A DNA stretch of 64,000 nt from positions 2,100,297-2,164,296 of the forward strand of contig CBDCYU010000003.1 of assembly GCA_965224345.1 (NCBI GenBank), given 5' to 3'. This DNA comes from Dehalococcoidia bacterium. Lineage in GTDB: Bacteria; Chloroflexota; Dehalococcoidia; Lucifugimonadales; CBDCYU01. The notes beneath the pieces were generated by a model. That model saw nothing but the letters and a program-made list of their open reading frames with translations, searched no databases and was not told the origin of the DNA. Positions 8,080-60,950 of this stretch are shown one piece after another (within the stretch, counting starts at the first letter, position 1; each line of letters begins with the position of its first letter). The translations under genes and the position numbers were made by a program.

Positions 8080-8625
8080 GGTGTCGATTGCCCTCGTCCA
8101 AGACCACACTATACCAGCACGGCGCCTGTGCGGGTAGCCGGGCGTGGAAGCACGGGCCCTACCCGCGGGTAGTGTCTCACTTTGACTTAGCGCCGCCTGC
8201 ACCTATTGACCACCGGCCCGCTCTGCCGGACGATGGCTCCTGGACTAGGGCGTGTTCACACTAACGTAGCGCATCGAAGATGAGGGCAAACAGGATGAAC
8301 CCGAGGAAGAGCGTGTCGAGCTTCTCAAAGCGAGAGAAGATGCGGCGAAACCCCTTCAACCGGCGGAACAACCGCTCGATTTCGTTCCGCCTCTTGTACA
8401 TCTCCCGATCGTACTCCCAAGGGTCAACTCGGGTGCTCAGGGGCGGAACAACCGGCGTGAACCCCAGCGCCAACGCCAGTTGGCGGGTCTCATTTCCCTC
8501 GTATGCCCGGTCCATTATCAGGAACGGCTTCCGGTTCTGTGACCCGAGGCGTGTCAACAACTTCCGCCCCTCTGGCGCGTCGTGGGCCTGTCCTGGAGAG
8601 AGGGAGAACGTTACGGCTGTTCTAG

Positions 8626-9824
8626 GGATACTCTGAACAAGTTCTGGTGTGTTGTGGCATAGTACTATGCCATACACAAAGCAGAGATGTTTGGGGTGAA
8701 GACACGATGGACCAGCCAACATTTGCCGACTTGGAGTACGAGAGCAAGAAGCGCAAGACCCGGCGGGAGATATTCCTGGAGCGCATGGACGGTCTGATCC
8801 CTTGGGAACAGCTCGTAGAACGCATCCGCCCGTTCTATCCCAAGGGCAGGCCGGGGCCGGCGACCCTATGAGTTGTCTGTGATGCTGCGGATTCACTGCG
8901 TGCAGATGTTCTACAACCTTAGTGATCCTGGTATGGAGGACATGCTCTACGAGGTCGAGTCGGTGAGACGGTTCGTAGGGTTGAGGCTGTCGGGCCCGCT
9001 CCCGGACGAGACGACGGTCCTGAACTTCCGCCATCTGCTGGAAGAGCACGAGTTGGGACAGGGTCTGTTCGAGGAGATCAACCGTCATCTGGAGTCCCAG
9101 GGGCTGCGGCTTCGGGAGGGAACGATCGTGGACGCGAGCATCATTGAGGCGCCATCGTCAACGAAGAATCGTGCAGGTAAGCGAGACCCTGAGATGCGTC
9201 AGACGAAGAAGGGGAATGAGTGGCACTTCGGGATGAAGGTACACGTCGGTGCGGACGCTGAGACGGGAGTAGTACATAGCGTAAGAACGACACCTGCGAA
9301 CGTTCATGACGTGACGGAGGCTCACCGGCTGCTGCACGGTGGAGAGAAACGGGTGTGGGGCGATGCGGGGTATCAGGGAGTCGACAAGCGATTGGAGAAT
9401 CGCGAGTTGGATGTGGACTGGCAGGTAGCGATGAGACCCGGGAGACGTCGGCAGCTGGAGCCGGGAAGCTATGAGGCGCTTATGGAGAAGCGCAAGGCGT
9501 CGACCAGGGCGAAGGTGGAGCATCCGTTCCTGTACGTGAAGCGGCACTTCGGATACGCCAAGGTGCGTTACCGAGGGTTGGCAAAGAACACGCAACGACT
9601 GATGTTGCTACTGGGGATGACGAACTTGATAAGGGCGGAGCAGTACTTGGCAGCCTGACGAGGGCGAAGTGCGCCCAAGCTGGACAAACGAACGTAGATA
9701 CGCCTTAGCAGAGCCGTTTCAGGACCACAAGACCTCATCGACACACGGTAGGAGGAAGAAACACCTCGGACAGTCCACTTACTGTCCATCACATACGAGA
9801 TACCCTCAGTTGTTCAGACCTTCC
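8626..9824 (+). mobile_element. IS5-family (IS5-group) insertion sequence, 1199 bp, nested in the IS427-like element
   Basis: The IRs are GGATACTCTGAACAAG (8626-) and the reverse complement of the right end, GGAAGGTCTGAACAAC (-9824), very close to the E. coli IS5 ends. A perfect 4-bp CTAG target duplication lies at 8622-8625 and 9825-9828. Removing the element restores the outer transposase frame (AADAR|TAVTF). Confidence 0.85.
8707..9658 (+). pseudogene. IS5-group DDE transposase carrying a frameshift near 8845-8870
   Basis: MDQPTFADLEYESKKRKTRREIFLERMDGLIPWEQLVERIRPFYPK is in one frame. (A)GRGRRPYELSVMLRIHCVQMFYNLSDPGMED...DAGYQG...KVEHPFLYVKRHFGYAKVRYRGLAKN is in the next frame. This group normally has a single ORF, so the cause is either a genuine frameshift or a sequence error. 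Confidence 0.65.
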
Positions 9825-11186: not shown

Positions 11187-11792
11187 ATGCTTGATTCTCG
11201 ACACGTTGCAAATGAGTTCATCCGGCTTTCAGAGGAGCGGGGCTCCTCACTCACACACATGCAGATCCAGAAGCTGGTCTACTTTGCTCATGCCCGCATG
11301 TTGAGCCTACATGGGGAGCCACTCTTAGCCCAGAAGTTTGAGGCGTGGAAGCTCGGGCCGGTGATCCGCACGTTGTATGATGCGCTCAAGGACAACGGCC
11401 CAATGCGGGTGAAGGCAGCCATCCCGATGGCTATGCCAGCCGGTCTGTCCACGAGGGAGAAAGACACTATCGCCTGGGCCTTTGCCAAGTACCGCCAATT
11501 GGGCGGTCAGGAGCTATCTAAACTGACTCACGCCCCAGACGCACCGTGGTATAACGCAAAGAATGAGAGCTCGCTCTCGAACCCCATCATCGATAATGAC
11601 CTTATCGGACAGTACTACTGGGCCGAGTGGCAGGAAGATCTTGAAGTGGAGCGGGAGCGACTACGCGATGACCCGGAGGTACAGGCTGCGATCGCCGAGG
11701 GGTTCACGCAACTTGACTGCGGCGAGAGCCACTCTGCAAGCTCGCCAGAGGAACTCCAGGAGTTAGTCGCCTCACGTGCAAGATCACGCTAG
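11187..11792 (+). CDS. Panacea-domain (DUF4065, SocA/GepA-like) protein, predicted antitoxin (PanA-like)
   Basis: THMQIQKLVYFAHARMLSLHGEPLLAQKFEAWKLGPVIRTLYDALK matches the DUF4065 core (KLxYf...AWxxGPV...Y). A GGAGG RBS precedes the start. The 3' end overlaps the next ORF by 17 nt. Confidence 0.8.
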   Translation: MLDSRHVANEFIRLSEERGSSLTHMQIQKLVYFAHARMLSLHGEPLLAQKFEAWKLGPVIRTLYDALKDNGPMRVKAAIPMAMPAGLSTREKDTIAWAFAKYRQLGGQELSKLTHAPDAPWYNAKNESSLSNPIIDNDLIGQYYWAEWQEDLEVERERLRDDPEVQAAIAEGFTQLDCGESHSASSPEELQELVASRARSR

Positions 11793-18901: not shown

Positions 18902-19609
18902 TCAGCGGCCGAACAGGCTCAGGAACCGGTCTTCGTAGAACCCGAACAGGCCCCAGCGGTCCAGCTCCCGCTTGAGCAGCTCGGGGTCGCCGCCGGCCCT
19001 CACCTGCCGGAAGAGCTGCTCTATCTGGTCTACCGCGGCCCTGGGCACTCCACCCAAGCCGGGTTGGGGGTCCAACATCCCCCTGGAGCGGAGCTCTTGG
19101 ATGTTGTGCCTGGCGGAGTTGGCGGTGAACTCGTAGATGAACTTGAACAGCGCGACGTCCCAGAGCTCGTCCACGCCCACCATCACCACCGCCAGGTTCT
19201 CGTTGCGCCGGTCCAGGTCGTCGCTGATGTTGTGGGCTATCTCCCGGGGAGCGCCGCTGACTATGTTGGACTTCTCCGCCTGGTTTCTGTACTGGTACAG
19301 TATCCCGGCGCTGTTTGGCCCATAGGTCCGGGCGGTGTACTGGAGATACTCGAAGGCCTCGTCGCTGAAGCCCTGGAGGTTCATCGCGTAGGTGGGCGTG
19401 ACCACGGCGGGCCGCTCGGCGATCACCCGGCCCGTTCGGACGACCCCCTCTTCACCCTCGGAGCCGCCCGGGACCAGGTCGTTGTAGATCGGCTCCGTGA
19501 CGACGTAGTAGGCGATGTTGGTAAGCCCGAAGGTGGTCAGATGCACCTTGGGGAACCGCACCACCCAGCTCTGCTCGATGGCCCTCTTCCACGCGTGTTC
19601 AGGGTCCAT
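18902..19609 (-). CDS. hypothetical protein (235 aa), no family recognised
   Basis: A clean ORF with normal composition. It overlaps the upstream peptidase gene by 11 nt, so the two are co-transcribed. Confidence 0.65.
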   Translation of the reverse strand: MDPEHAWKRAIEQSWVVRFPKVHLTTFGLTNIAYYVVTEPIYNDLVPGGSEGEEGVVRTGRVIAERPAVVTPTYAMNLQGFSDEAFEYLQYTARTYGPNSAGILYQYRNQAEKSNIVSGAPREIAHNISDDLDRRNENLAVVMVGVDELWDVALFKFIYEFTANSARHNIQELRSRGMLDPQPGLGGVPRAAVDQIEQLFRQVRAGGDPELLKRELDRWGLFGFYEDRFLSLFGR

Positions 19610-21101
19610 TCTTCACTCTCAGGCGCCGGGCCGCCAGCCAAGCCAGCCCCGCGGTGAGCATCAGCAGCGACGCGTCCATGGTCATTGAGCCGCCGCCGGA
19701 GCCGGTACAGGGGCCTCCCCCCTCTGCGCCTACTGGCGGCTGGGAGCCCGTGGCCGGCCCGACGGTGGGCTGCAGGGACGCCGCAGGCTCCGGCGTAGGG
19801 GGAGTCGTGGGGGCCGGAGCCGGCTCCACGGGCTCCGGCGTGGATACCTGGGGCACGCCCTCAGCCACAAGAGCCGAGGGCGTCAGGCCGAAGGGTACAA
19901 TCTCCAGACGAGGGATCGGCGTGGGCAAGGCTCGGCCCCGGGCCGGCGGGATGTGCGGCGGCGCTCCCACAAAGGACCTCCACTGATTCTCCAGGGTCAG
20001 CCGGTCCAGCCCATATATCTGGTTGAGGGCAACGTCAACGCTGTTGCCCTGCTTCATGACTGCCATGAGGTCTCGCATCTTCTCCGGCCCGAAACGGCCT
20101 ACCATGTACTCGACGAGGCTGCGCGCCTGACCGTAGAAGATGATCACCTGCTCGGGATTCCCCGGAAGGGTGCGCATCTGCGTTATGGGAAGCATACGGT
20201 CCGTGGCTATGGCAAAGTCCAGCGCTACCCCATAGGTGAATCCGGGCTCCACGTTTCCAAACTCGGCCAAGCCCTCGTCGAGCCAGGAGGGCACTCTCCC
20301 AATGGAGCTGTCTCCGGCGCGGTGGTTGAGGATATGGGTAACCTCGTGGGATGCCGTGCCCCTGGCCAGCCTGCCGTTGCCCAGCACCAGCAGCGTTCCG
20401 ATGTCCGTGAAGGCCTGGCCCTCTGTGATCAGCTCTCGCCGGATAGTGGAGCTCCCCGGCGGGAGAGCCTCCAGCATCTCCTTGACGTTATTGTACATGG
20501 TGACTCGGATGGGTATGGTGATGTCGACGCCCAGGATCGGACCCAACTGGTTGAGGGTATCCACAATCGCTTCGAGGATGATCTCGGCGCGCCGGCCAAC
20601 GGGACCATGGTAGGCCACCAAGACCGGTCCGTCCTCTACCTCGTTCCACTCGAAACGGACGTCCTCGTAGACAAACTCCTGGGGCTCGGTATCCACGCGA
20701 GTCCCTTCCCCTTCCATCTCGAAGTTGTAGGTGATCACGGTACCGGGCGGTATGTACCTCGCCGAAGTGTTCGTCCGCCAGAGCAGCTGGAAATCGTCAG
20801 CTCCTTCTGTCTCGGCGGTCAGATAGTCGTACGAGCCCACCGTCGCCTGGCCTATGCGGAAACGGATCGCGATCGACTCCAGCGCAGCCGCCCCTTCGAC
20901 TTGGGCGGTGAACCGGATGGCGTCGGGGAAGTGGCTGGTAACCGAGGACGAGACCAACTTGAAGGGGCTCTGTGCCTCGGCGGGCCCAGCCGACAAGAGC
21001 AGCAGGGGCATCACCGCTATGAGCGCTAAGGATCTTATGCCAAGTCTGACGAGTCTCACTTTCACGTGTCCCTGCCCCATCCAGCCGGAGGGCTCGCTCA
21101 C
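19599..21101 (-). CDS. secreted peptidase MA (gluzincin)-like protein with a C-terminal membrane anchor
   Basis: A signal peptide (…LLLLSAGPAEAQ) is followed by HExxH (ASHEVTHILNH) and a downstream SWLDEGLAEF (third Zn ligand Glu). A PTPEP-rich linker and a terminal hydrophobic helix follow (LLMLTAGLAWLAARRL). Confidence 0.8.
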   Translation of the reverse strand: MSEPSGWMGQGHVKVRLVRLGIRSLALIAVMPLLLLSAGPAEAQSPFKLVSSSVTSHFPDAIRFTAQVEGAAALESIAIRFRIGQATVGSYDYLTAETEGADDFQLLWRTNTSARYIPPGTVITYNFEMEGEGTRVDTEPQEFVYEDVRFEWNEVEDGPVLVAYHGPVGRRAEIILEAIVDTLNQLGPILGVDITIPIRVTMYNNVKEMLEALPPGSSTIRRELITEGQAFTDIGTLLVLGNGRLARGTASHEVTHILNHRAGDSSIGRVPSWLDEGLAEFGNVEPGFTYGVALDFAIATDRMLPITQMRTLPGNPEQVIIFYGQARSLVEYMVGRFGPEKMRDLMAVMKQGNSVDVALNQIYGLDRLTLENQWRSFVGAPPHIPPARGRALPTPIPRLEIVPFGLTPSALVAEGVPQVSTPEPVEPAPAPTTPPTPEPAASLQPTVGPATGSQPPVGAEGGGPCTGSGGGSMTMDASLLMLTAGLAWLAARRLRVKNGP

Positions 21102-21820
21102 GATATCCGGGTGGCCCGGTCCGAGGCCGGCTCGCCTGCGTCAGTCTCGGAATCTCCTTCGCCCGCGGCCTCCAGGACTCGCTTCAGGAGCTCCTCTTCG
21201 GTGACAGCGCCCATGATCTGAACCGTGTCGTTGATTACAGTCTTCGGTACACTCATGACGCGGTACGCTTGCGCCAGGTGAGAGAACTCCTGCACCTCCA
21301 CCACGTCGGCGACCACCTTGGGAGACTCCAGGGCCATCGCGTGGGCCACACGGGCCACCTCGGGGCAGTACTGTCAGCTGGGAGTCACGAACACCTGGAT
21401 GTGTACCTCCTCCTTGAGTCTCCTCAAACGCTTCCGCGTCGCCCGGTCGAGGGAGCTCCCGTTGCTGGAGGCTTCGACGATGGTGTCCACGAGTACGGAG
21501 AATTCGTACCCGCCGGGAAGACCGTAGAACCGTGCGCCGCCCGCACCGACGATAAGCGCCGGTATCTTGTCAACACCCAGGTCCTCGGCAGTCCGGGGAC
21601 TGCCGTAGAAGTCTATGACTTCCAGGTCTATCTTGGGCGAGAGAGCGCTCACCTCCTTCAGCATTCGCTCCGTATCCCCGCAGGAGGCGCACTCTCGACC
21701 GGGTATGTAGAGGCCGCCGGCGTTACGCTGGGTAACCAGCCTCAGCTTGACGTTCCGATGGAGACCCTTCTCGAATCTCTCGCGGACCACGTCCTGCGCC
21801 CTCTGCTCTAGGATCGGCAT
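21098..21820 (-). CDS. two-domain thioredoxin-fold protein (PDO / glutaredoxin-like) with an in-frame TGA at the second redox motif (Sec candidate or pseudogene)
   Basis: Track ORFs 21374..21820 and 21098..21358 are in the same frame, separated only by TGA (21374-21376). The combined sequence is ...GRECASCGD... (first CxxC) ... HIQVFVTPS-[TGA]-QYCPEVARVAHAMALESPKVVADVVEVQEFSHLAQAYRVMSVPKTVIN. The TGA aligns with the first Cys of the FVTPTCPYCP motif of this family. Confidence 0.6.
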
Positions 21821-21916
21821 CCTCGTCCTGTCTTCCCCATATCTTCCGCGAATACGGTCTGCCGGACTCTGGCACGGCAGACTACATCAATTGTACCGTA
21901 GCTTCTTGGAGCGAAT

Positions 21917-22519
21917 CTACTCCCGGTCCCTGAGCACGCCGTGGGAGTGGACCACCCTCTGGATGGTGGTGACGAGGGCCAGCCCCGCCAACACTCCCAG
22001 GATGACGAGGAGCCCCGTAGACCACCAGTGGCCAAGGACGAGACCTCCGCCCAGCAGGGCCACTCGCTCGGGACGTGTCATGACGCCCACCTCGCATTCG
22101 ATCTCGAGGCCCTCCGCCCTGGCTCGCACATAGCTCACCATCAACGACGCCGCCAGGGCCAGATATACCAGGACCGACCCCTCCACGGACGAGCGGTCCA
22201 GGTAGTAGACCAGCAGGCCCAGCAGGACCACGACCTCCGCAAACCGGTCTACCACCGAGTCCAGCAGAGCGCCAAAGGGAGTCGCGCGGCCGGTCTCCCT
22301 GGCGAGGGCACCATCGAAGAGATCGAACACCCCCGATACGAGAACGACCACGCCGCCGGCCCACAGGTTCCCCAGGGCAAGAAGCAGTGCGCTCACCCCC
22401 GCGACGAGGAGGCCGAAGAGGGTAACCGCGTTTGGAGAGACCCCGCCTCTCGCCAGGAGCCTGGCTACGGGCCTTCCAAGGTAGGTTGTGAGAGCCCTGC
22501 GGGTGGCCGCCCTGTTCAT
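21917..22519 (-). CDS. CDP-alcohol phosphatidyltransferase (phosphatidylinositol-phosphate synthase-like)
   Basis: The full signature D-x2-D-G-x2-A-R-x8-G-x3-D-x3-D is present in DLFDGALARETGRATPFGALLDSVVD. The protein is multi-TM. Confidence 0.9.
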   Translation of the reverse strand: MNRAATRRALTTYLGRPVARLLARGGVSPNAVTLFGLLVAGVSALLLALGNLWAGGVVVLVSGVFDLFDGALARETGRATPFGALLDSVVDRFAEVVVLLGLLVYYLDRSSVEGSVLVYLALAASLMVSYVRARAEGLEIECEVGVMTRPERVALLGGGLVLGHWWSTGLLVILGVLAGLALVTTIQRVVHSHGVLRDRE

Positions 22520-22526
22520 GCGCCGT

Positions 22527-23678
22527 TCACGCGATGGCGATCAGACGCGCGTCTATGAGACTTGCGTAGTAGTCGCCAACCTGCGCCGCGACCCTCTGCC
22601 AGCGGAACCTCTCGACTCTCCGCCGGCCGTTGGCAGCCATGCGCGCCCGCAGCTCCGGGTCCCTCAGCAGTGTGGAGACCGCCCTGGCGATCTCCACGTC
22701 GCTCCGGGGAGGGACCAGGATGCCCTCTTGCCCGTTCTCTATGACGCTGGAGTATCCATCGACGTCGCTTGCCACAATCGGCGTACCCGCTGCCATCGCC
22801 TCCGCCAGCACGATGCCGAAGCTCTCCCTGCCCGTCGTCGGCGAACAGAAGATATCCGCCGTCTTGAAGTACCTGGCCTTGTCCTCATCCGAGACGTTTC
22901 CCGCAAAGACGACGTCCTGCAGGTTTCGCTCGCTCATTATGCGGTAGGAGTCGTCGTCGGGCTTGCCCGGCCCGACGACGATGAGCCGCAGATTCGGCCA
23001 GTCCCACTTCAGCATGCTGTAGGCGCCCAGCAGGTACTTCAGACCCTTCTTCTTCTCGATTCGCCCCACGAAGAGAAGGTTGATCATCCCGTCCTGCAGA
23101 TGGGGAAACGGGACCGCATTCGTGAAGTCGTCCACCTCGATACCGTTGGGGATAACCTCGTACCGCCCGTGGAGGTTGCGGGTGGCGAACCTCCTGGCGG
23201 CCTTGGACACGGCGATACGTCCGTCCAGCCTCTCGCAGTAGCGCCTGGCGAGTCTCCCCACGCCTGTCTTGTACAGGCGAGTCCCGTTGTTGGAGTGGAA
23301 GGTGCCGACCTTGACGGCGTCGATGGACTTCGATTCGGCCAGGACGCAGAAGGTGGTGAACCCGGCGAAAGGCTCATGCAGGTGGACTACGTCGAAGGCC
23401 TCCCGCCGCAGCAGCTCCTTGATCCGCGGACGCAGCCAGACCGAGAGGGACACGCGGGCGATGGAGCCGCCCGCAGGCAGCGCTACCGACCGCCCCATGG
23501 GGATGAAGTCGGGGTCGGTGGCCGCCTCCGGGTTCGAGCAGGGCGCTATGACGCGTACGGTGTTGCCCCAAGCCCTGAACTGAGAGGCCAGGTTGTTGAT
23601 GTGGTCGGTGACGCCGCCTCGAAACGCATGGTCGTAGGGCGACACCAGCGCTATCTTGATGGGGCTGTCCATGTGCAA
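22527..23678 (-). CDS. GT4-family glycosyltransferase, PimA-like
   Basis: The N-terminus IKIALVSPYDHAFRGGVTDHINNLASQFRAWGNTVRVIAP matches the family, and the C-terminal half carries the GT-B E-x7-E region (FCSPTTGRESFGIVLAEAMAAGTPIVASD). Confidence 0.9.
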   Translation of the reverse strand: MHMDSPIKIALVSPYDHAFRGGVTDHINNLASQFRAWGNTVRVIAPCSNPEAATDPDFIPMGRSVALPAGGSIARVSLSVWLRPRIKELLRREAFDVVHLHEPFAGFTTFCVLAESKSIDAVKVGTFHSNNGTRLYKTGVGRLARRYCERLDGRIAVSKAARRFATRNLHGRYEVIPNGIEVDDFTNAVPFPHLQDGMINLLFVGRIEKKKGLKYLLGAYSMLKWDWPNLRLIVVGPGKPDDDSYRIMSERNLQDVVFAGNVSDEDKARYFKTADIFCSPTTGRESFGIVLAEAMAAGTPIVASDVDGYSSVIENGQEGILVPPRSDVEIARAVSTLLRDPELRARMAANGRRRVERFRWQRVAAQVGDYYASLIDARLIAIA

Positions 23679-23779: not shown

Positions 23780-24889
23780 TCACGCATCCCCAAAGTCCAC
23801 TTCCAGATGTCCGTCCTGTCCTGCGATGAAGTCCTCGACCATCTGCCTGGCAACGTCGTCGGTGAACTGCCGGTTGGGGGACTTCATGAAGTAGGCGGAG
23901 GGTCCCGGTATCGGGCCGCCCATGCCTCTGTCCTTGGCAATCTTGCAGCAGCGGATGGCGTCGATCACCACGCCTGCGGAGTTGGGGCTGTCCCAGACCT
24001 CCAGCTTCAGCTCCAGGTTGATGGGGGCATCCCCGAAGCTCGTGCCCTCCATGCGTATGTGGCACCACTTCCGGTCGTTGAGCCAGGCGATGTGATCGCT
24101 GGGCCCCACGTGGATGCGCGTCTCTTCGATCTCCTCGTCCATCTGGGAGGTCACCGCCTGGGTCTTGGATATCTTCTTCGACTTTAGCCGGTCCCTCTCC
24201 AGCATATTCAGAAAATCGGTGTTGCCGCCGAAGTTCAGCTGGTACATTCGGTCCAGATGGACCCCGCGGTCCTCGAACAGGCGGGTGAGCACCCTGTGCA
24301 CGATGGTCGCACCCACCTGCGACTTGATGTCATCCCCGATGATCGGGGCGCCCGCGGCCTTGAACCGGCGCTGCCAGTAGCCGCCCTCTCCGCTGGCGAT
24401 GAAGACGGGAATGCAGTTGACGAAGCCGGTGCCGGCGTCCAGTACCTGCTCGACGTACCACCGCGTCGCCTCTTCGGAGCCCACGGGCAGGTAGTTGACC
24501 ACGACGTCGACCTCGCGCTCCTTGAGGATGCCGGCGACGTCGTCCGTCGGCCCGGGAGCCTTCTCCACGATCTGCGACACGTAGCTTCCCAGTCCATCGT
24601 GGATCATACCGCGCTGTACCGTCACATCCATGTGGGGCACTTCGGCGAAGCGTATCGTGTTGTTCGGCTCGGTAATCAGCGCCTCGGACAGGTCTTTGCC
24701 CACCTTGTCGGCATCTACGTCGAAGGCGGCCACCACCTTGATGTCGCCGACGCCGTACTCTCCCAAGACCGGATGCATCAGACCGGGCACGGTATCGCCG
24801 CTGCCGACGTCGCGGTACTTGGTAAGCCCCTGCACCAGGGCCGACGCGCAGTTCCCCGCTCCTATAATGGCGACCTTTATATCTGACAA
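23780..24889 (-). CDS. ino1: myo-inositol-1-phosphate synthase
   Basis: [21 protein letters not shown] is the NAD-binding region, followed by the conserved core (…[14 protein letters not shown]…[12 protein letters not shown]…). The start is placed at the TTG at 24889, after GAGGGGGG. The track ORF extends to 25027. Confidence 0.9.
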
Positions 24890-25043
24890 ATTAAGCTTCC
24901 CCCCCTCACATGCCCCCCGAATGGGGGGCGCTTCAAGCAGCGCTGGGTACCGGATATACCGAGAGCTGCAGTTTGGAATCGCCTCTCCCTGCGAATCGAT
25001 TCTAGCATTGTCGTCCGTCCGGGGCAAACGCCGGAGCTATCCT

Positions 25044-39118: not shown

Positions 39119-40507
39119 ATGCCATCCATACCCATGACAACCCGCACCCGTCGGTCCGACCGTACGAAGCGCCACCCCGTGATATGTACCGCCTGTAATG
39201 CGTCCACGTCCGTCCCCTTCCTACCAAATCCTGACAGGCCCGTGTACTGCGGCCCGTGCCATCAATCCCGTCGTCACTGCCCTCCAGCCGCGGTCAAATC
39301 ACCCGTCAACGAGCCGGTGACGGGCCATGACTCCCGCGATGATACCGCCAACGCCGTGGATCCCGTATTTCCCGGAATGGCCCTGAAGGCCACTACCAGG
39401 CAGGCGATTGCACGGATGGACATATCCGAACCCACACCCATTCAAGAGAAGACCATTCCGCACCTGCTGGCGGGCCGTGACCTGATAGGTCAGGCACGCA
39501 CTGGGTCCGGTAAAACGCTCGCGTTCGCCGTCCCCATGGTGGAGCAGTGCGACCCGTCGGTCCGGCGGATTCAGGCGCTTGTGCTGGTGCCCACGCGGGA
39601 GCTGGCCATTCAGGTGGCCGAAGTCACAGAGGTCTTGGCATCATCGCAGCGCCTCCGCGTGACGTTACTGTACGGCGGCCGGTCGTTGAGGCCAGAGCAT
39701 GCAGCGTTGAGGAGCGGCGCTCAGATCATCATTGGCACGCCGGGCCGGACGCTGGACCATTTGCGCCAAGGCACCCTCGACCTGCGATCAGTACGATTCA
39801 TGGTGCTGGATGAAGCCGACGAGATGCTGGACAGAGGCTTCGCCCACGATGTCGAGGCGATCCTTGGCGAGACTCCCTCGGAACGCCAGACGGCGCTCCT
39901 GTCCGCCACGATGCCTGAGTGGGTTGCCAAGACCGCGGCTAAGCACCTGAAAGACCCCGTAACGGTCGAAGTGGACCCAGACCTGCAATCCCTGCCCACG
40001 GTGGACCACCTCGTGTATACCATCCGCAAGAGCGACAAGATCGAGGTCCTACAAGACCTGCTGAACGAGCGTTGCGGCGAACTGGTTATTGTCTTCGGCA
40101 AGACCAAGCACGGTGTCAAGAGGCTGGCGAAACAGCTCGACAACATGGGCTATCCCGTTGGGGCGCTTCAGGGCAACCTCAGTCAGAACGCCCGCGAGCG
40201 TGTGATGAAGGACTTCCGTTCCGGCGACGCCCCAATCCTGGTTGCAACGAATGTCGCTGCCAGAGGCCTGGACGTCGAGGGTATCGAACAGGTCATCAAC
40301 TATGACCTGCCGGACACAGAGCTGCTCTTCACACACCGGGTCGGACGAACTGGCCGTATGGGCCGCTCCGGCGAGGCGGTGACGTTCATCACTCCGGATG
40401 AAGAGCAGAAGTGGCGGGAGATCGAGCGGGGCCTCGGCCGCCGGTTCAAACGCATGCCCTGGAGTGTCGCCCGTCAGAAAGCGCAGTCTCGAGAGAGCTA
40501 CGCGTAG
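39119..40507 (+). CDS. DEAD-box ATP-dependent RNA helicase with an N-terminal CxxC...CxxC zinc ribbon
   Basis: The motifs are Q (PTPIQ), I (AQTGSGKT as ARTGSGKT), II (DEAD), III (SAT) and VI (HRVGRTGR). The N-terminus is CTACNASTSVPFLPNPDRPVYCGPCH. Confidence 0.9.
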   Translation: MPSIPMTTRTRRSDRTKRHPVICTACNASTSVPFLPNPDRPVYCGPCHQSRRHCPPAAVKSPVNEPVTGHDSRDDTANAVDPVFPGMALKATTRQAIARMDISEPTPIQEKTIPHLLAGRDLIGQARTGSGKTLAFAVPMVEQCDPSVRRIQALVLVPTRELAIQVAEVTEVLASSQRLRVTLLYGGRSLRPEHAALRSGAQIIIGTPGRTLDHLRQGTLDLRSVRFMVLDEADEMLDRGFAHDVEAILGETPSERQTALLSATMPEWVAKTAAKHLKDPVTVEVDPDLQSLPTVDHLVYTIRKSDKIEVLQDLLNERCGELVIVFGKTKHGVKRLAKQLDNMGYPVGALQGNLSQNARERVMKDFRSGDAPILVATNVAARGLDVEGIEQVINYDLPDTELLFTHRVGRTGRMGRSGEAVTFITPDEEQKWREIERGLGRRFKRMPWSVARQKAQSRESYA

Positions 40508-40726: not shown

Positions 40727-41338
40727 ATGAAGGGCACATTCCAGCTAGTCCTGATAGCCGCCATAGCCCTGACGGTCGTCGGGGCTATGGTCCTCCTGTT
40801 CCGTACATCTTCGCCAGGCGGCGTGGAGGTCATCCTGCCTGCGGCCACCGCGACGCCCAAGCTTGATATCCGTATCCACGTGAAGGGCGAAGTAAGACAT
40901 CCGGGCGTCTACGCCCTAAACGACGGCGACCGGCTGGAGCAAGCCATCGAGGCCGCGGGCGGCCTGACATCCGACGCCGACCTGATGGCGATCAACCTCG
41001 CTCGCCGCGTCAGGGACGAGGACGAGTGGTACATCCCCAAGGTGGGTGAGAGCACGGTCTCCGCGACGGTCCAGAGCCCCTCCGATACAGCCAGACCCGA
41101 CGACAACCCCGCGCCGTCCGCACAGGCTCCACCCTCCGTGGACAAGATCGATATCAACTCTGCGACCGTAGCGCAGCTCAGGGATGGACTGCCCGGCATC
41201 GGAGACGTCCGGGCCCAGGCCATCGTCAGCTATCGAGAGGCCAATGGCAGGTTCTCCAGCGTTGCCGAGCTGCTGGATGTCCACGGTATCGGCCCCAAGA
41301 CCCTGGAGCAGGTCCGCGATCTGGTCGAGGCCCGCTGA
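40727..41338 (+). CDS. comEA: ComEA family DNA-binding protein (SLBB + tandem helix-hairpin-helix)
   Basis: The start is at MKGTFQLVLIAAIALTVVGAMVLL (TM anchor). The SLBB-like region is HVKGEVRHPGVYAL and the HhH region is IDINSATVAQLRDGLPGIGDVRAQAIVSYREANGRFSSVAELLDVHGIGPKTLE. Confidence 0.85.
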   Translation: MKGTFQLVLIAAIALTVVGAMVLLFRTSSPGGVEVILPAATATPKLDIRIHVKGEVRHPGVYALNDGDRLEQAIEAAGGLTSDADLMAINLARRVRDEDEWYIPKVGESTVSATVQSPSDTARPDDNPAPSAQAPPSVDKIDINSATVAQLRDGLPGIGDVRAQAIVSYREANGRFSSVAELLDVHGIGPKTLEQVRDLVEAR

Positions 41339-49131: not shown

Positions 49132-50205
49132 CCTACATGTAGGTGAAGGGGTGAGCGTTATCCACAGACATCCACCATATATGGGACACCGCTATATATG
49201 GTGGGTTGCCGTCAGTTATCCACTGAGACACCCCATATATGGGGTGTCAGGCCGTGAGGTCGACGTAGCGGAGGCGCTTGCCGTTCATCGCGCGGACGAG
49301 ATCGGCCATCTGGTCGACCGTGTCCTTGAGCCGTCCGTTGTGGCGTCCAGCGAACTCCGTCGCATAGCGCGCAGTGTGCTTTCGGCTGATCCAGTGGTAC
49401 GTCCCGATGATGCCGCGTTTGAGCACCGCCCAAAAGCTCTCGATTCCGTTGGAGTGAATCTCACCGTCGACGTACTGGCCGGCGCTGTGCCGGACGACCG
49501 CGTGGTTCGGCAGGCCGCGATACGCGTAGGCCTCGTCGGTGTAGACCGTCGTGCTGGCGGTGGTGCGCTCCCGAACGAAGCCCTGGAGCGTGGCGCTGTT
49601 GACCTGTTCGACCACCGCGACCGAGACTGCGCCAGACTCGCGGTGCTTGACCCCGACCACCGGCGTCTTGCCGACGGCGCCGCGGCCGGCTCGGAGCTTC
49701 TTGCTGGCGTGCTTGTTCTTCTCCAGGCCGCCGATGTACGTCTCGTCGACCTCCACGTGGCCGGAGAACACTGGGGGCCGCTCGACCCACGCCTCGCGGA
49801 TGCGGTGCGCCATGTGCCACGCGGTTTTCTGCGAGACGCCGATGTACTGACCGAGCCGGACGCTGGAGATACCCTTGACGCTGGTGGTCACGAGGTAGAT
49901 CGCCAGCGCCCACTTGCGATAGCCGATCTTCGAGCTCTGCATGGGCGTCCCGATCTTGACGCTGAAGAACCGAAGGCAATCTCGGCACCAGTACGGCATG
50001 GTCGCGTGGCGGGTGCGCTCCGAGACGTTAAGACTGCCGCAACGCGGGCACGCCATGCCAGTGGGCCACCTGGACGCGACGAGCCACTGCTCGGCAGTGG
50101 CGTCATCGGGGAACATTCGAATAGGGTCGGGAGCGTCAGCGTAGCCATAGTGTCACCTCTTGCGAGGTCACGTTACTGGGGGTACGCGTCTCACCTCAAG
50201 GTAGG
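49132..50205 (-). mobile_element. IS1595-family insertion sequence (boundaries tentative)
   Basis: It carries a single transposase gene. The candidate IRs are CCTACATGTAGGTGAAG (49132-49148) and the reverse complement of 50189-50205, CCTACCTTGAGGTGAGA (13/17). No clear target duplication was found. Subterminal GTTATCCAC...CCATATATGGG motifs lie at 49157 and 49215. Confidence 0.55.
49247..50116 (-). CDS. IS1595-family transposase (N-terminal zinc ribbon + DDE domain)
   Basis: MFPDDATAEQWLVASRWPTGMACPRCGSLNVSERTRHATMPYWCRDCLRFFSVKIGTPMQSSKIGYRKWALAIYL…VEVDETYIGG…YTDEAYAYRGL… matches the ISXO2-like layout. Confidence 0.9.
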   Translation of the reverse strand: MFPDDATAEQWLVASRWPTGMACPRCGSLNVSERTRHATMPYWCRDCLRFFSVKIGTPMQSSKIGYRKWALAIYLVTTSVKGISSVRLGQYIGVSQKTAWHMAHRIREAWVERPPVFSGHVEVDETYIGGLEKNKHASKKLRAGRGAVGKTPVVGVKHRESGAVSVAVVEQVNSATLQGFVRERTTASTTVYTDEAYAYRGLPNHAVVRHSAGQYVDGEIHSNGIESFWAVLKRGIIGTYHWISRKHTARYATEFAGRHNGRLKDTVDQMADLVRAMNGKRLRYVDLTA

Positions 50206-54592: not shown

Positions 54593-55090
54593 TCACGCTG
54601 CGCTGAACCGGACGAGCCTGGTATCTCCCCTGACGTAGAGGGGATGGCGCGGGTGCCCCTGCAAGGTGACTCCCAGCGCGTGGGTCTCGACGCCCCTCTC
54701 TTGGAGGACAGCGAGGGTCCTCCGAGCCCTGCCCTCCAACTCGCCGCTATTGCCGTAGGCGAGCACGACGAGGCGCGACCTCGACGCCGCCTCGAGCGTC
54801 TCCGCCAGGTTCCTCCGCGCCACGGCGTCGGGCTCCGGGCCGTGCTCCAGCAGGTCCCTGGGGCGGGCGGCCCTGAAGGGAGAGAGGTTGGTCACCAGCA
54901 GCCAGGCGAACCCCCACATGCGGGCGAACCCCGCGCAACGGCTTATGGTGGGGTCGTTACACTCCTCGTCCGCGGTGGAGGGATTCAGCATCAGAAAGTT
55001 GACTGCCCTCTCTCCGGGCCCGACCCTTCGAGTAAGCAGGAACCTGTACTTCCTGTCCGGGGAGAACAGCGCGGGCGGCATCTTGCTCAT
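54593..55090 (-). CDS. DUF1643 family protein
   Basis: ALFSPDRKYRFLLTRRVGPGERAVNFLMLNPSTADEECNDPTISRC…LVVLAYGN…GHPRHPLYV matches the DUF1643 pattern. It shares a 4-nt ATGA overlap with the upstream gene. Confidence 0.75.
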   Translation of the reverse strand: MSKMPPALFSPDRKYRFLLTRRVGPGERAVNFLMLNPSTADEECNDPTISRCAGFARMWGFAWLLVTNLSPFRAARPRDLLEHGPEPDAVARRNLAETLEAASRSRLVVLAYGNSGELEGRARRTLAVLQERGVETHALGVTLQGHPRHPLYVRGDTRLVRFSAA

Positions 55091-55779
55091 GCTACGGCCC
55101 GGTTCGCTCCTCGAGCTCCTCTATCCACCTGCTTGAAAAGGGGACATTGGCCGCGAATGGCGCTGAGACCTATCTCCTCCACTGCGAGGACGCCCATCAA
55201 GGGCTTCTGGTAGCCTTCGTACAGGTCGCGAACACGCTTGGAGGGGGCCGTGTCCGGCGAGTCGTTGATCTCCTCAGGGGTCCCGAATTCGGCGCGGACC
55301 GCCTGAAGCTCCGCCGATAGGTTGGGTCGCCCAATTCCTCGGGCGAAGCGTTCCGGGTCGCTGAACAGAAGCCCCTCGAACTCATGCATCACCACGTAAG
55401 GGATGAAGCGCCGGCGGTCGAAAGCGCCGCCCAGGGAGCTCGAAACATCTTCCAGGAGGGCCTGCTGGACGGAGGCCGCTCGCTCCTTCAAGGTCTCCTT
55501 ACGTGCGGCCCGCTCCCGTCCCGGCCACGTGAATGGCAGCCCGTAGTAGTCCACCATGGTCGTCGCAAACGTATCCCGGTCCGATGTCAGGTGATTCAAG
55601 ATGTCGTTGCGCACCGAATCCCATGGTCTGATGCCGCCGCGCCGGCTCCGTTGACGAGCATTACCGATCAGGCGGGCGCTGACATTCGTATATCCAAGAC
55701 TGTACAGGTACGGGGCCAGGACTCCATTCACGAAGCTCTCCTCCGTCTGGCCCTCGACGTGTACGAGTAACCGGGGCAT
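55087..55779 (-). CDS. DUF4276 family protein (Toprim-like N-terminal motif)
   Basis: MPRLLVHVEGQTEESFVN… and …FIPYVVMHEFEGLLFSDPE… match my recollection of the DUF4276 conserved blocks. It starts 4 nt after the ATPase stop. Confidence 0.75.
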   Translation of the reverse strand: MPRLLVHVEGQTEESFVNGVLAPYLYSLGYTNVSARLIGNARQRSRRGGIRPWDSVRNDILNHLTSDRDTFATTMVDYYGLPFTWPGRERAARKETLKERAASVQQALLEDVSSSLGGAFDRRRFIPYVVMHEFEGLLFSDPERFARGIGRPNLSAELQAVRAEFGTPEEINDSPDTAPSKRVRDLYEGYQKPLMGVLAVEEIGLSAIRGQCPLFKQVDRGARGANRAVA

Positions 55780-55783
55780 CCCG

Positions 55784-56890
55784 CTACTCCCGCCTCGGCC
55801 GTCCGCCCAGCTCGTTCTTCTCCCAAAGCTGGCCCAAGCTGTAGCTCTCCAACCAGGGCTCCAACTCGGACGATTCGAGCCGATTGAGCTGCGTTTTGCC
55901 GTCGACGCGCTCCGCCACGAGCACCTCCTCCGACTCGAAGTGGTCCAACAGGAGGGACGACTGGGTCGAGACGATCACCTGCGACTCGATTGACGCCTGC
56001 CTCATCAGCGACGCCAGCAGGGTGATGGCGTACGGGTGCATCCCCAGCTCCGGCTCGTCTACCAGGATTACCGACGGCCTGAACTTCACCGGCTGGAGGA
56101 ACAGCGTAGCCAGGGCCATGAAGCGCAGCGTCCCGTCCGATAACGATGAAGCGTCGAAATAGGCGTCCGTTCCTTCATGTCTCCACTCGAGCCTGATCTT
56201 GTCAGGGTTCAGCCCCTGGGGATTGAGCTCGAAGTCCTCGAAGAACGGCGCTGCCAGCCGGACCGTCCGCGCGATGGAGCGATACGAATCTTCGTGCTTC
56301 TCACGGAGGAGATAGAGAAGGGCCGCCAGATTCGTTCCGTCGGTGCGGAGATAGCGGTTGTCGTTCACGTCAGCCGTCTTTTTCATGGGAGAGCTGGCAC
56401 TGGTGTCGTGGAAGTGATAGAGGCGCCACCTATCTAGACGCTGCCTGACATATCCTCCAACTCTCACTAAGAACCGGTTGCTGATCCCGGCTTCTCCTTC
56501 GGCGCTCCTAAGCTGCACCATGTAAGGATTGGAATTCGGCTTGTTCCGGAAGCATGCGGTTTCATCCCATGGAACCAGCTCGTCAAGACCAGTCGGCTCA
56601 AGAGTGAGATCATATTCGTTTTTCCCCTCTTCGAAGGAGAGGCGAATATGCAGCTGCTTGGTAACTCGTGAGCCGAAGTGCAGCACCTTGTCGGCGCCGC
56701 CTGCCTTGATCACATACTCCCGCAAACGGCCCTCCCGGATGGCATTCAGGAAAGAGAACACGCCAAGAAAGTTCGACTTGCCGGAGCCGTTGGGGCCGAT
56801 GAGCACCGTCAGCGGTCCGATCTCCAGCTCCTCGATGGACTCGATGCTCTTGAAGCCCCGTACGGTTATGTAGTCCAGCTCGCTCATCAC
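55784..56890 (-). CDS. AAA_15/AAA_21-type (ABC/SMC-like) ATPase
   Basis: Walker A is GPNGSGKSN, the signature-like motif is LSDGTLRFMAL, Walker B is VILVDEPELGMHP and the H-loop region is IVSTQS. It shares a 4-nt ATGA overlap with the upstream MTase gene. Confidence 0.85.
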   Translation of the reverse strand: MMSELDYITVRGFKSIESIEELEIGPLTVLIGPNGSGKSNFLGVFSFLNAIREGRLREYVIKAGGADKVLHFGSRVTKQLHIRLSFEEGKNEYDLTLEPTGLDELVPWDETACFRNKPNSNPYMVQLRSAEGEAGISNRFLVRVGGYVRQRLDRWRLYHFHDTSASSPMKKTADVNDNRYLRTDGTNLAALLYLLREKHEDSYRSIARTVRLAAPFFEDFELNPQGLNPDKIRLEWRHEGTDAYFDASSLSDGTLRFMALATLFLQPVKFRPSVILVDEPELGMHPYAITLLASLMRQASIESQVIVSTQSSLLLDHFESEEVLVAERVDGKTQLNRLESSELEPWLESYSLGQLWEKNELGGRPRRE

Positions 56891-58524
56891 ACCGTCTCGC
56901 CCATTCTACCCTGCCGGCCCTCGGCGCGCCTCACTCGCTGGGCGGCCTGGTACATGGACGGGTGAGGCGGCAGATCGAAGGTCTTGCCCTCCAGCAGCTC
57001 GGCTATGGTGCGCAGCTGTATTTTCGGGTAGTCCCTCTGCCACACGTCCGAGTGGTAGAAACCCGCGCTGACGGCCTCGGTGCGCATGGCGCTCGTCGGC
57101 TCCTCCAGGGTGATGAAGAGGCCCATCGCCGCCTTCTCGCGCTGGACGGTGCCCTTCAGATCGCGGATGAGGGGCGACGAGACCCTGCCGCTCTTGACCT
57201 GCACGATGGCCTTCCGCGGCGAGCGCCGGGGGCCGTCGATGAAGTAGACGATACCGTCGATGCCCCTATCCGCGCCGCGCCTGCTCTGCTCCCGGGGGGA
57301 CGCCTCCAGCAGGGACATGGCCCAGAACTGGAACTGGTACCTGTCCTGCTCCGCCAGGGCGCGGGCGCCGCCGACGTCCGCCGGCTCGCCGACGACCTCG
57401 TAGTCCCTGCCGGGCACGATGTCGAAGGCGGTCTTGAGGCGGTTCTTCATCAGCGCGACTGCTAGATGGGTGACGTCGATGCCCATCCACCGGCGCTTCA
57501 GCTTCTCCGCGGCGGCCACCGCCGTGCCGCACCCGCAGAAGGGGTCCAGCACCACGTCGCCCTCGTTGGATGAGGCCTCTATGATGCGCTCCAAGAGGGC
57601 CTGCGGCTTCTGGGTTGGGTAGCCGAGACGTTCCTTATTGGAGCCGGACAATGAGTATATGTCTGCCCACACATCTTGCATGGGGACCCCCCGAGACTCG
57701 TCGAGGTAAGTTTTCCTGCTAGGATACCCAGTCCTCGAGTAGTACAGGCGGCCTTCTTCGTGTAGGCGCTGCATGGTAGCCTGGCTGTACCTCCATGCTC
57801 TCGTATGTCCATTCCACTCATATACAGGATTGCCCTTCTCTGCACCACCTGGTCCCGTCAGCGGAGTGGTCCTGAATCTTCTTCCAGTCTCCTCGTCAAC
57901 ATATCTGTACGTACTCCTGACATAGCTTTCATCCAGTGGAACGAATCCTTGATGCCAGGTAACAGATGCGCTCTTGCCATACAACAGGATGATGTCATGC
58001 ACTCGTCCAAATCGAGTAGACCCCTGACCCACATCGTTGTGAGCACCGTAACGCTTCCATGTGATTTCATTTCGAAAGTTCTCAGCCCCAAACACCGCAT
58101 CCATCAGCAGCTTCAAGTAGTGGCTCGCTGTCGGGTCGCAGTGCAGGTATATGGAGCCGGTGGGCTTCAGCACCCGGCGAAGCTGCACCAGCCGCGGCGT
58201 CATCATGACAAGGTACGCCATCATGGCGTTGCTGCCGATGAACTGGCGGAAGCCGGAGACCATCTCCTTGACGTTGGGCGGCGTCTCCGGGTTCAGTACG
58301 ATCTCCTGCTCGAACGTCCGCTCCGACTCCTGCGTCCACTCCCACGTGTCGGTGAACGCCTTGATCTGGGCGGGCGACTCCTCGCCGGACCTCTCCTTGA
58401 ACAGCACGTTGTACGACGCGTTGGAGTTGAAGGGCGGGTCGAGGTAGACGAGGTCCACCGACTCGTCGGGGACGTACCGGCGCAGCACGTCCAGGTTGTC
58501 GCCGTAGTACAGGGTGTTAGTCAT
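56887..58524 (-). CDS. beta-class N6/N4 DNA methyltransferase fused to a C-terminal Mrr-type restriction endonuclease-like domain
   Basis: The start is at MTNTLYYGDNLDVL. Motif IV is VDLVYLDPPFNS and motif I is VVLDPFCGCGT. The C-terminal PD-(D/E)xK motif is RGIDGIVYF…KAIVQVKSG. The track ORF extends to 58749 but would then overlap vapC. Confidence 0.85.
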   Translation of the reverse strand: MTNTLYYGDNLDVLRRYVPDESVDLVYLDPPFNSNASYNVLFKERSGEESPAQIKAFTDTWEWTQESERTFEQEIVLNPETPPNVKEMVSGFRQFIGSNAMMAYLVMMTPRLVQLRRVLKPTGSIYLHCDPTASHYLKLLMDAVFGAENFRNEITWKRYGAHNDVGQGSTRFGRVHDIILLYGKSASVTWHQGFVPLDESYVRSTYRYVDEETGRRFRTTPLTGPGGAEKGNPVYEWNGHTRAWRYSQATMQRLHEEGRLYYSRTGYPSRKTYLDESRGVPMQDVWADIYSLSGSNKERLGYPTQKPQALLERIIEASSNEGDVVLDPFCGCGTAVAAAEKLKRRWMGIDVTHLAVALMKNRLKTAFDIVPGRDYEVVGEPADVGGARALAEQDRYQFQFWAMSLLEASPREQSRRGADRGIDGIVYFIDGPRRSPRKAIVQVKSGRVSSPLIRDLKGTVQREKAAMGLFITLEEPTSAMRTEAVSAGFYHSDVWQRDYPKIQLRTIAELLEGKTFDLPPHPSMYQAAQRVRRAEGRQGRMGETV

Positions 58525-58594
58525 AATGTTCGAGGGCTCTTGAAATCGACGCGCTGTCCTCGACACGCAACCCTGAGGCGCAGCAGATATCGGA

Positions 58595-58975
58595 TCAGAT
58601 ACGGAATCCGAGGGTTGCGGCCACGGCCCGCTGACGGTCGTCGAGAGTGACGAAGGAGATGTCGCTGGGCTCCGGGGCGGCGTAGAGGGCCGTCGCGATA
58701 TGCCACAGATCGGCTCCCCCGAGGTATCCGGCCTGCAGGATGGACGCAATCTCCGTGGTCAACGGACGGTCCGGGAGGACCCACCTGACGCCGGAGAGGA
58801 CACGGACGTCAAAAGCCCTTCTCTCCCGTCCGTACGCGGCCCGGACCTCGGCTTCGAGCAGATTCGACGACCAGAGGCTGGAGAACCGACCGAGGCGCCG
58901 CTCCACGGCGGTCCATCCGTTATCTTGGAACGCAATGCCGACGATGGCGGAAGAGTCGACGTAGGCGATGCTCAC
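58595..58975 (-). CDS. vapC: PIN-domain ribonuclease toxin VapC
   Basis: The acidic quartet context is MSIAYVDSS (D), LLEAEV (E), GADLWHIA (D) and TLDDRQ (D). It shares a 4-nt overlap with the upstream antitoxin gene. Confidence 0.85.
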   Translation of the reverse strand: MSIAYVDSSAIVGIAFQDNGWTAVERRLGRFSSLWSSNLLEAEVRAAYGRERRAFDVRVLSGVRWVLPDRPLTTEIASILQAGYLGGADLWHIATALYAAPEPSDISFVTLDDRQRAVAATLGFRI

Positions 58976-60104: not shown

Positions 60105-60950
60105 TCACCCGCTTGCGTTGAGGATGTACTTGGCTATTCTCTTGGCAACAGCCGCTCCGTTCGGGTTGCCGACACAGAACACAAACTCAAATAAGGGTGA
60201 GTTCTTCGAGTTCATAAGGGTCTTGGATGTCTCCATGAATCTCTGACCGAACAGGGCTTTCAGCTTGGCCTTGTATATCTTCCTGATTCCCTCAACGCCG
60301 GGATCCCTCTGGTACATTTGATCGCCGAATAGGGACTGTTGGGGATTGGCGTAATATAGCTCTCTCCAGCTTTCATCGCCAAAGATTTTGGTCAGCCTGT
60401 CGGCCCAGGCGTCAGAGATATCGTCCGGGTTCCTCGAGACAGGCAGCATTCTGGCGATCGCGGATATTGGAAAGAGTATCCAAGTGTCGAGGGCGTTGAA
60501 GCCCGCTATCCTTTCGATTGTAGTCCATTCAACCTCAGTAGCAAACGGATCGAGAAAGAGGACGCCTCGCCATACCCTCCAATCTTCTTGCAGCTTGCTC
60601 AAGAAAGTGTTGGCGTCGGAGTTCTCAGTTCTGATGTCCCGCCCGGGATTTTTTTTGCGTAGGGTTGCCAGTTGATTATATCGTTGAGTGTCCTTCTCAA
60701 CGAAGATCAGTCGGTCGAACGCCTTGTCGTCAATACCAATCGCCAGCTTTGACGAGCCGTCTATGAAAGCTCGTGCATCATCATCTGCCAGACGCGGGCT
60801 AACGCTACCTGTACCGGCAAAAGCATCTACGTACATCAACTTGAAGGACTGATTCTTCAGTGCGGTAGTGTAGGCATTCAGGATGGATAGCTTGTCGACA
60901 GTCCATTGTCCTCCAAAGCCGTCAGGCGTTGTTTCGGACGTTCCGGCCAT
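60105..60950 (-). CDS. tcmP: three-Cys-motif partner protein TcmP
   Basis: …QWTVDKLSILNAYTTALKNQSFKLMYVDAFAGTG…LFLDPFATEVEWTTIERIA…DTWILFP… is as I recall for the TcmP family. It sits 4 nt upstream of the Gp37/Gp68 gene. Confidence 0.75.
   Translation of the reverse strand: MAGTSETTPDGFGGQWTVDKLSILNAYTTALKNQSFKLMYVDAFAGTGSVSPRLADDDARAFIDGSSKLAIGIDDKAFDRLIFVEKDTQRYNQLATLRKKNPGRDIRTENSDANTFLSKLQEDWRVWRGVLFLDPFATEVEWTTIERIAGFNALDTWILFPISAIARMLPVSRNPDDISDAWADRLTKIFGDESWRELYYANPQQSLFGDQMYQRDPGVEGIRKIYKAKLKALFGQRFMETSKTLMNSKNSPLFEFVFCVGNPNGAAVAKRIAKYILNASG

Follow-up and report, generated by a model that had tools for sequence, protein, structure and literature searches.

Does an in-frame TGA in a gene of an uncultured Dehalococcoidia bacterium end translation, or is it decoded as selenocysteine (Sec)? 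The question is raised by a stretch of 64,000 nucleotides (nt) from this organism (assembly GCA_965224345.1, contig CBDCYU010000003.1, positions 2,100,297 to 2,164,296 of the forward strand), which is called the window throughout and to which all coordinates refer. At 21098..21820 on the minus strand it harbors a gene for a two-domain, glutaredoxin-like protein disulfide oxidoreductase (PDO), in which TGA takes the place of the codon for the first Cys of the C-terminal CxxC motif. A first-pass annotation, made from the letters of the window without database searches, had proposed that the gene is a candidate for a selenoprotein with the motif U-Q-Y-C. Judged from the sequence and its comparison with related genomes, the TGA is very probably a genuine Sec codon, and the gene a complete and real selenoprotein gene. 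The candidate is favored by the agreement of a downstream hairpin with published criteria, by a mixture of Sec and Cys codons at the respective column in related genomes, and by the presence of the same TGA in five independent assemblies.

Translation of the minus strand from 21820 to 21098 yielded a single frame of 240 codons plus a terminal TGA stop (21100..21098), and the only internal stop was the TGA at 21374..21376, which is codon 149. In the mechanical list of open reading frames (ORFs) the gene appears in two pieces of 148 and 86 amino acids (aa). These two ORFs had previously been read as one frame that is broken by the TGA alone, and the translation agreed with this; the joined protein, VHIQVFVTPS-UGA-QYCPEVARVAHAMALES and onward to VMSVPKTVIN, was identical to the earlier reading. 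The strand had not been stated before, and it is the minus strand. The N-terminus MPILEQR resembles the sequences MPILQQR and MPILQPR of homologues. Codon 149 is position 1 of the C-terminal active-site motif U-Q-Y-C (residues 149-152, 21365..21376), and the TGA is directly followed by a C. The N-terminal half has a CxxC motif of its own, C-A-S-C, which had also been recognized earlier and is located at residues 44-47 (21691..21680). Gene callers break the gene as well: in four related assemblies (L050, L051, L055, and L056) it is annotated as a 148-aa "DUF7088" product and an 83-86-aa "Thioredoxin_3" product. In addition, N-terminal fragments in the protein database (P0005, P0105, P0111, and P0119), which led to the contigs of these four assemblies, end exactly at VHIQVFVTP(S/G/N).

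To which family does the joined protein belong? Profile searches were performed with Cys substituted for Sec at residue 149. The protein matched the NCBIfam equivalog model TIGR02187.2 ("PDO_seleno_TRX, protein disulfide oxidoreductase") with 224.9 bits, compared to a curated cutoff of 185, and the match covered the profile positions 3-209 of 209, which makes the whole protein a member of this family. The Pyrococcus PDO/glutaredoxin-like structures PDB 1J08 and 1A8L were matched by phmmer with an E value of about 3e-30 (residues 38-218); the alignment extends across both halves, each of which is thus predicted to form a thioredoxin-fold unit with a C/UxxC motif. The C-terminal unit, which carries the Sec (residues 140-216, 21173..21403), matched Pfam Thioredoxin_3 with an E value of 9.4e-26. 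The first-pass annotation had placed the PDO motif FVTPTCPYCP at the site of the TGA, and this was borne out by the alignment with 1J08, in which ILIFVTPTCPYCPLAVRMAH is aligned with IQVFVTPSCQYCPEVARVAH. CASC lies opposite the N-terminal CQYC of 1J08, and S-U-QYCP lies opposite T-C-PYCP of the C-terminal active site. Both Cys columns of CASC are kept in at least 80% of the Sec forms of the family. We classify the protein as a PfPDO-type protein disulfide oxidoreductase of 240 residues with two predicted thioredoxin folds. It shares with PfPDO (1A8L) and the P. horikoshii protein (1J08) the two thioredoxin folds, a length of about 226-240 aa, one CxxC motif per half, and the segment FVTP(S/T)-C-x-Y-CP. 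However, the Pyrococcus PDO has Cys at both sites (CQYC and CPYC), while the window protein combines CASC with a Sec, and the overall identity is low.

An identity as AhpF (TIGR03140) was rejected. The respective match (residues 48-227, E = 1.2e-23) reached 83.4 bits, compared to a cutoff of 502.9, and comprised the N-terminal module alone; PDB 1ZYN and 1HYU were matched as well. The N-terminal domain of AhpF is a homologous double-thioredoxin-fold module, but the window protein is devoid of the FAD/NAD(P)H reductase portion.

If the TGA encodes Sec, which codons are found at this position in relatives? One genome per GTDB species was scanned, which led to 49 related loci, mostly from metagenome-assembled genomes (MAGs) of Dehalococcoidia/Chloroflexota and a few from Myxococcota and archaea, and the codon aligned to codon 149 was extracted from 48 of them. 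It was TGA in 21 cases, TGC or TGT in 22, and GAC in five. A mixture of Cys and Sec in this column had been named earlier as something to look for, and it is indeed present. The tblastn alignments of all TGA cases passed in frame through the TGA into the conserved domain (x-x-C-P, ARVAH, and VPKTVIN, in this order), and the TGA forms include two from Myxococcota with an identity of only 34-35%. Therefore, the UGA is aligned with a redox-active Cys, and the TGA orthologues are conserved in frame on both sides of it. The placement of the TGA goes beyond chance, because it falls on the catalytic Cys column and TGA recurs there in so many of the genomes. In the database, the closest full-length homologues have an identity of 58-63% and contain Cys at this position (CQYC or CQFC), and thus the clade of the window is itself a Sec/Cys mix.

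The TGA is also present in close and more distant assemblies of other origin. Two of them, L050 and L051 (both from ENA), have a DNA identity of about 95.5% to the window, and L055 (ENA, from a separate study) and L056 (JGI) have a protein identity of 64-68% to the window gene. All four contain TGA-CAG-TAC-TGY, and the C-terminal domain encoded behind it is complete. A comparison of codons 150-218 of the window gene with those of L050 yielded nine synonymous and four non-synonymous differences, and there were no indels. This pattern indicates purifying selection on the part downstream of the UGA, and therefore that this part is translated.

Is there an RNA element that could direct Sec insertion? 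A hairpin GUGGCC-CGUGU-GGCC(C)AC had been proposed to follow the UGA, and it can be read directly at 21358..21341 of the minus strand, starting 15 nt past the A of the UGA, i.e., at nt 19-36 if the U of the UGA is counted as nt 1. It is a candidate for a bacterial Sec insertion sequence (bSECIS). Its core GGCC/CGUGU/GGCC (21356..21344) was obtained with RNAalifold from 22 Sec forms, and a second pairing register, GUGG.CC/GUGU/GG.CCAC, is possible. The hairpin was found in every Sec form, and its distance to the UGA is constant; the divergent Sec forms L028, L037, and L047 have an altered sequence and retain a hairpin, the loop of which is GGA, GGU, or GGUU. The element was compared with the bSECIS criteria of a 2026 review (PMC13188914), which were applied by hand rather than by bSECISearch, and the window hairpin agrees with all of them. 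The apical loop has 4-5 nt (CGUGU or GUGU; 3-9 nt are required) with the required G within its first two positions, the stem has 4-6 base pairs (bp; at least 4 are required), and the spacing between UGA and loop is 21-22 nt (16-37 nt). The minimum free energy (MFE) is -7.9 kcal/mol for nt 16-39 and -9.4 kcal/mol for nt 13-42, at a requirement of -7.5 kcal/mol or lower.

The hairpin codons are under constraint at synonymous sites, which was analyzed across the Sec forms for 56 conserved amino-acid columns with at least fourfold degeneracy. The two Ala codons of the stem are the most invariant codons of the gene and occupy ranks 1 and 2 of the 56 columns (GCC in 21 of 21 cases for Ala at +7, and in 21 of 22 cases for Ala at +10), compared to a median share of the top codon of 0.58. 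The loop codon Arg(+8) has rank 5 (CGT in 18/22), although Arg is usually encoded by CGC at other positions. When 15 sequences with less than 80% nt identity were used, the ranking remained the same, and the constraint is confined to the TGA forms. The third base of the Arg codon is located in the loop and gives rise to the dinucleotide G-[G/U], as in the bSECIS consensus from the literature. This base is G or U in all 26 Sec forms, whereas it is C or A in 11 of 22 Cys forms (p = 3e-5 in Fisher's test, without correction for phylogeny). A similar difference exists for the base directly after codon 149, which is C in 26/26 Sec forms versus 10/22 Cys forms. UGA-C is the weakest context for termination by release factor 2 (RF2).

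Two kinds of related loci depart from the simple Sec or Cys pattern at this column. The five GAC codons are from Dehalococcoidia genomes (L038:3445, L039:3445, L040:3448, L041:3448, and L048:3452) and belong to D-x-x-C versions of the same PDO family, e.g., VTPTDTSCP, so that the column is in fact Sec/Cys/Asp. These forms may be monothiol or redox-inactive paralogues. The locus L014:3162 (Baikal-deep-G112) encodes a Cys form (TGC-GAG-TAC-TGC) that carries exactly the hairpin codons of the Sec forms (ATG GCC CGT GTG GCC CAT), which would fit either a recent conversion of Sec to Cys or the ancestral state.

The direct support for a Sec codon is the single reading frame, the family membership, the Sec/Cys column, the conservation of the part behind the UGA together with the purifying selection on it, and the conserved and constrained hairpin. 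Several observations weigh against it. No compensatory changes were detected by RNAalifold and by counting pairs in the 22 Sec forms, because the pairs are practically invariant, and the two registers fit these sequences equally well, with about 84-85% of the cells paired in either. The 81 nt after the UGA do not fold better than shuffled sequences (z = +0.41), and the local MFE is above -7.5 kcal/mol in 9/22 Sec forms. Rfam did not return a SECIS-type match, neither for the whole window at the gathering threshold nor for 21050-21900 at E<=10; the only matches were two tRNAs and two chance matches to long non-coding RNAs. Moreover, the hairpin coincides with the conserved peptide A-R-V-A-H, and some Cys forms, with the same Ala-Arg-x-Ala codons, could form an analogous GCGC/GCGC hairpin. 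Genes for Sec decoding were also not detected nearby: a tRNA-Sec is absent from the 64-kb window, in which ARAGORN and Rfam found only a tRNA-Arg and a tRNA-Leu, and none of the 60 window ORFs matched SelA, SelB, or SelD of NCBIfam above the cutoff. A tblastn search with E. coli SelA and SelD sequences against about 470 kb of related loci, which is a weak test, gave no match either. Lastly, the related assemblies have a low coverage, as indicated by the contig names (3x and 6x), and the window itself is from a metagenome lineage. Because the structure-based statistics do not prove the element, it is the synonymous-site constraint that was used as support for the hairpin.

The machinery searches covered the window and the related loci and thus have no bearing on the rest of the genome of about 3 Mb. 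The only match to a SelB model in the window was the GTPase domain of TypA, and it was far below the cutoff. ARAGORN did not find a tRNA-Sec in 51 related loci, and Sel Pfam domains were absent from about 10 kb past the right end of the window in related strains; the strains that were found are 95-99% identical, and one of them is represented by a contig of 3.05 Mb. For two proteins encoded at the left end of the window, database records were not found. With 46-49 selenoprotein genes, Dehalococcoidia MAGs have been reported to belong to the bacteria richest in selenoproteins (PMC13326102). The ability of the organism to decode Sec is suggested by the gene itself, by its relatives, and by this literature.

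Could the TGA nevertheless be something other than a Sec codon? One explanation would be a pseudogene, i.e., a normal PDO gene of the Cys type that lost its function when TGC mutated to the nonsense codon TGA. TGA is only one base away from TGC, the nearest full-length homologues are Cys forms, and Sec machinery was not detected in the window. However, a pseudogene is hard to reconcile with the recurrence of TGA in this column in 21 genomes of different species and in four additional assemblies, all of them with an intact downstream frame, with the excess of synonymous over non-synonymous differences after the TGA between strains, and with a hairpin that is constrained in the TGA forms only, and it is thus very improbable. 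Still less probable, and hardly worth considering, is an error of sequencing or assembly at 21374. Long-read metagenome assemblies of low coverage might contain such errors, and the labels of the related contigs attest to low coverage; yet the identical TGA is found in four more assemblies, which are independent and stem from different samples and databases (ENA and JGI), and also in the 21 GTDB genomes. A third possibility is that UGA is decoded in another way, either because the codon has been reassigned to Trp or Gly throughout the genome or by near-cognate read-through with Cys or Trp. The leaky UGA-C context and the lack of Sec machinery in the window would be in line with this. In contrast, TGA is the terminator of 10 of the 23 confident window genes, at lengths typical for their families, and a scan of the window for coding potential, which was based on codon usage, did not reveal a second in-frame TGA that looks internal to one gene. 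The sole other strong candidate, at 41336, is located between the separate genes comEA and comEC. In addition, codon 149 falls exactly on the catalytic Cys column of a family that is already known to use Sec, which makes another kind of recoding about as implausible as a pseudogene. Taken together, the comparative TGA/Cys data, the conservation after the TGA, and the normal termination at TGA are taken to exclude an error in the sequence, a nonsense mutation private to this genome, and a reassignment of the codon.

It is somewhat less far-fetched, albeit improbable, that the UGA serves mainly as a stop codon, so that a 148-residue N-terminal protein would be produced, with or without a separate C-terminal fragment that starts at the GTG at 21358. 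This is how gene callers treat the four related assemblies, and some truncated product is indeed expected, because RF2 is always a competitor of Sec insertion in bacteria. But the 86-aa product starting at this GTG would lack the entire U/CxxC active site, whereas the residues QYCPE between the TGA and the GTG are conserved, including the resolving Cys, and the Cys orthologues are single proteins of 240-246 aa. Therefore, decoding of the UGA as Sec is preferred to all of these explanations.

How might Sec be inserted, and what would it do in the protein? We infer the actual insertion of Sec, the binding of SelB, a reductase partner, and the substrates, and the mechanism proposed here is modeled on the well-established bacterial Sec pathway. 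As the ribosome approaches the UGA, the hairpin 15-33 nt past it, with G-U in its apical loop, would bind the complex of SelB, GTP, and Sec-tRNASec. SelB would then bring Sec to the A site and outcompete RF2, and the C right after the UGA would provide a weak context for termination. In the protein, the selenolate of U149, at the N-terminal (attacking) position of UxxC, would act as the nucleophile in thiol-disulfide exchange and would form a selenenylsulfide with the resolving Cys152. Re-reduction is presumably performed by a partner of the thioredoxin reductase type, as for archaeal PDOs; a thioredoxin-reductase-like gene is not adjacent to the PDO gene in the window.

How does the gene compare with known systems? 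The PDO family is already included in catalogues of selenoproteins, in which UxxC is given as its motif and ABB15282.1 as an example (PMC13188914, PMC9312934), and Sec-containing PDOs have been reported for Carboxydothermus hydrogenoformans and Symbiobacterium thermophilum (PMC1794560). The window protein resembles the catalogued family in its score above the curated cutoff of the hidden Markov model, in the Sec position of UxxC, and in the two-domain architecture. It differs in its host, which is an uncultured Dehalococcoidia-like member of the Chloroflexota and not of the Firmicutes or Actinobacteria, and its motif is U-Q-Y-C, whereas the majority of the Sec forms in the comparison set have U-P-H-C. 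The candidate element shares with the SECIS of the E. coli fdhF type and the bSECIS model of bSECISearch that it is a stem-loop in the coding region just past the UGA with a small G-U apical loop, and its spacing and energy are inside the ranges of the model. However, it is devoid of sequence similarity to the fdhF SECIS, its binding by SelB is predicted only, and its core is very short, i.e., a GGCC stem of 4 bp, which reaches 6 bp if a bulge or mismatch is allowed and which shows no covariation. It could be that the invariant GG-CC-CGU-GU-GGCC of the Ala-Arg-Val-Ala codons represents a family-specific minimal class of SECIS, which would have stayed nearly constant from Chloroflexota to Myxococcota because SelB reads its sequence in addition to its shape. 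We regard this idea as unlikely, including its combination with a link to inositol lipids that is described below; the evidence for both of them is conservation.

The gene adds one more member to an established selenoprotein family, and its lineage is already known for a heavy use of Sec. The finding is thus an ordinary one, because the family has already been catalogued as selenoprotein, up to the "seleno" in the name of the NCBIfam model. It does not raise a new question, as both the family with its UxxC motif and the abundance of Sec in Dehalococcoidia have been documented. Its practical importance lies in the annotation: due to the split gene calls, the protein that bears the active site is lost from the catalogues of uncultured Chloroflexota, and annotation as a single selenoprotein corrects this. 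It would also imply that the organism is selenium-dependent and has its Sec machinery elsewhere in the genome.

The neighboring genes are on the same strand. Downstream of the PDO gene, at 19599..21101, the ORF list contains a gene for a Peptidase_MA_2-like protein of 500 aa (Pfam PF13485 was found for the L050 and L051 orthologues). If the longest ORF is taken, the stop codon of the PDO gene overlaps the GTG start codon of this gene (GTGA, 21098-21101), which would suggest translational coupling. An equivalent overlapping 500-aa call is present in L051; in L050 a later start was chosen by the gene caller. Upstream of the PDO gene, genes for a phosphatidylinositol-phosphate (PIP) synthase (21917..22519, NF045883/NF040950), a GT4 glycosyltransferase (22527-23678), and an inositol-3-phosphate synthase (INO1, 23780-25027) form a cluster on the minus strand. 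The PIP synthase is a conserved synteny partner and stands outside the Sec mechanism. Upstream homologues on the same strand were found for the PIP synthase in 28 of 50 loci, for the glycosyltransferase in 27/50, and for the inositol-3-phosphate synthase in 23/50. The Sec-containing PDO could be tied to this cluster and serve the biogenesis of inositol lipids or of the cell envelope, which, like the minimal SECIS class and jointly with it, is considered unlikely.

Several additional features were observed elsewhere in the window. A cluster resembling a defense island is located at 55784-58749 (minus strand) together with 54593-55779. It encodes an N6/N4 DNA methyltransferase of 620 aa, relatives of which have Mrr/REase domains, and an AAA ATPase that resembles MAD3 of methylation-associated defense systems. 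In related strains, DUF4276 and DUF1643 genes adjoin this cluster, and alignments between strains break there. Transposase genes of the IS5 and IS1595 families were found at 8261-9088 and 49247-50116, both on the minus strand, and the region from 8 to 12 kb has a GC content of 0.585, lower than that of the remainder. Further genes encode a SocA-like antitoxin (11187-11792, plus strand), the three-Cys-motif partner protein TcmP (60105-60950, minus strand), and a DEAD-box helicase with an N-terminal CxxC-x17-CxxC domain (39119-40507, plus strand).

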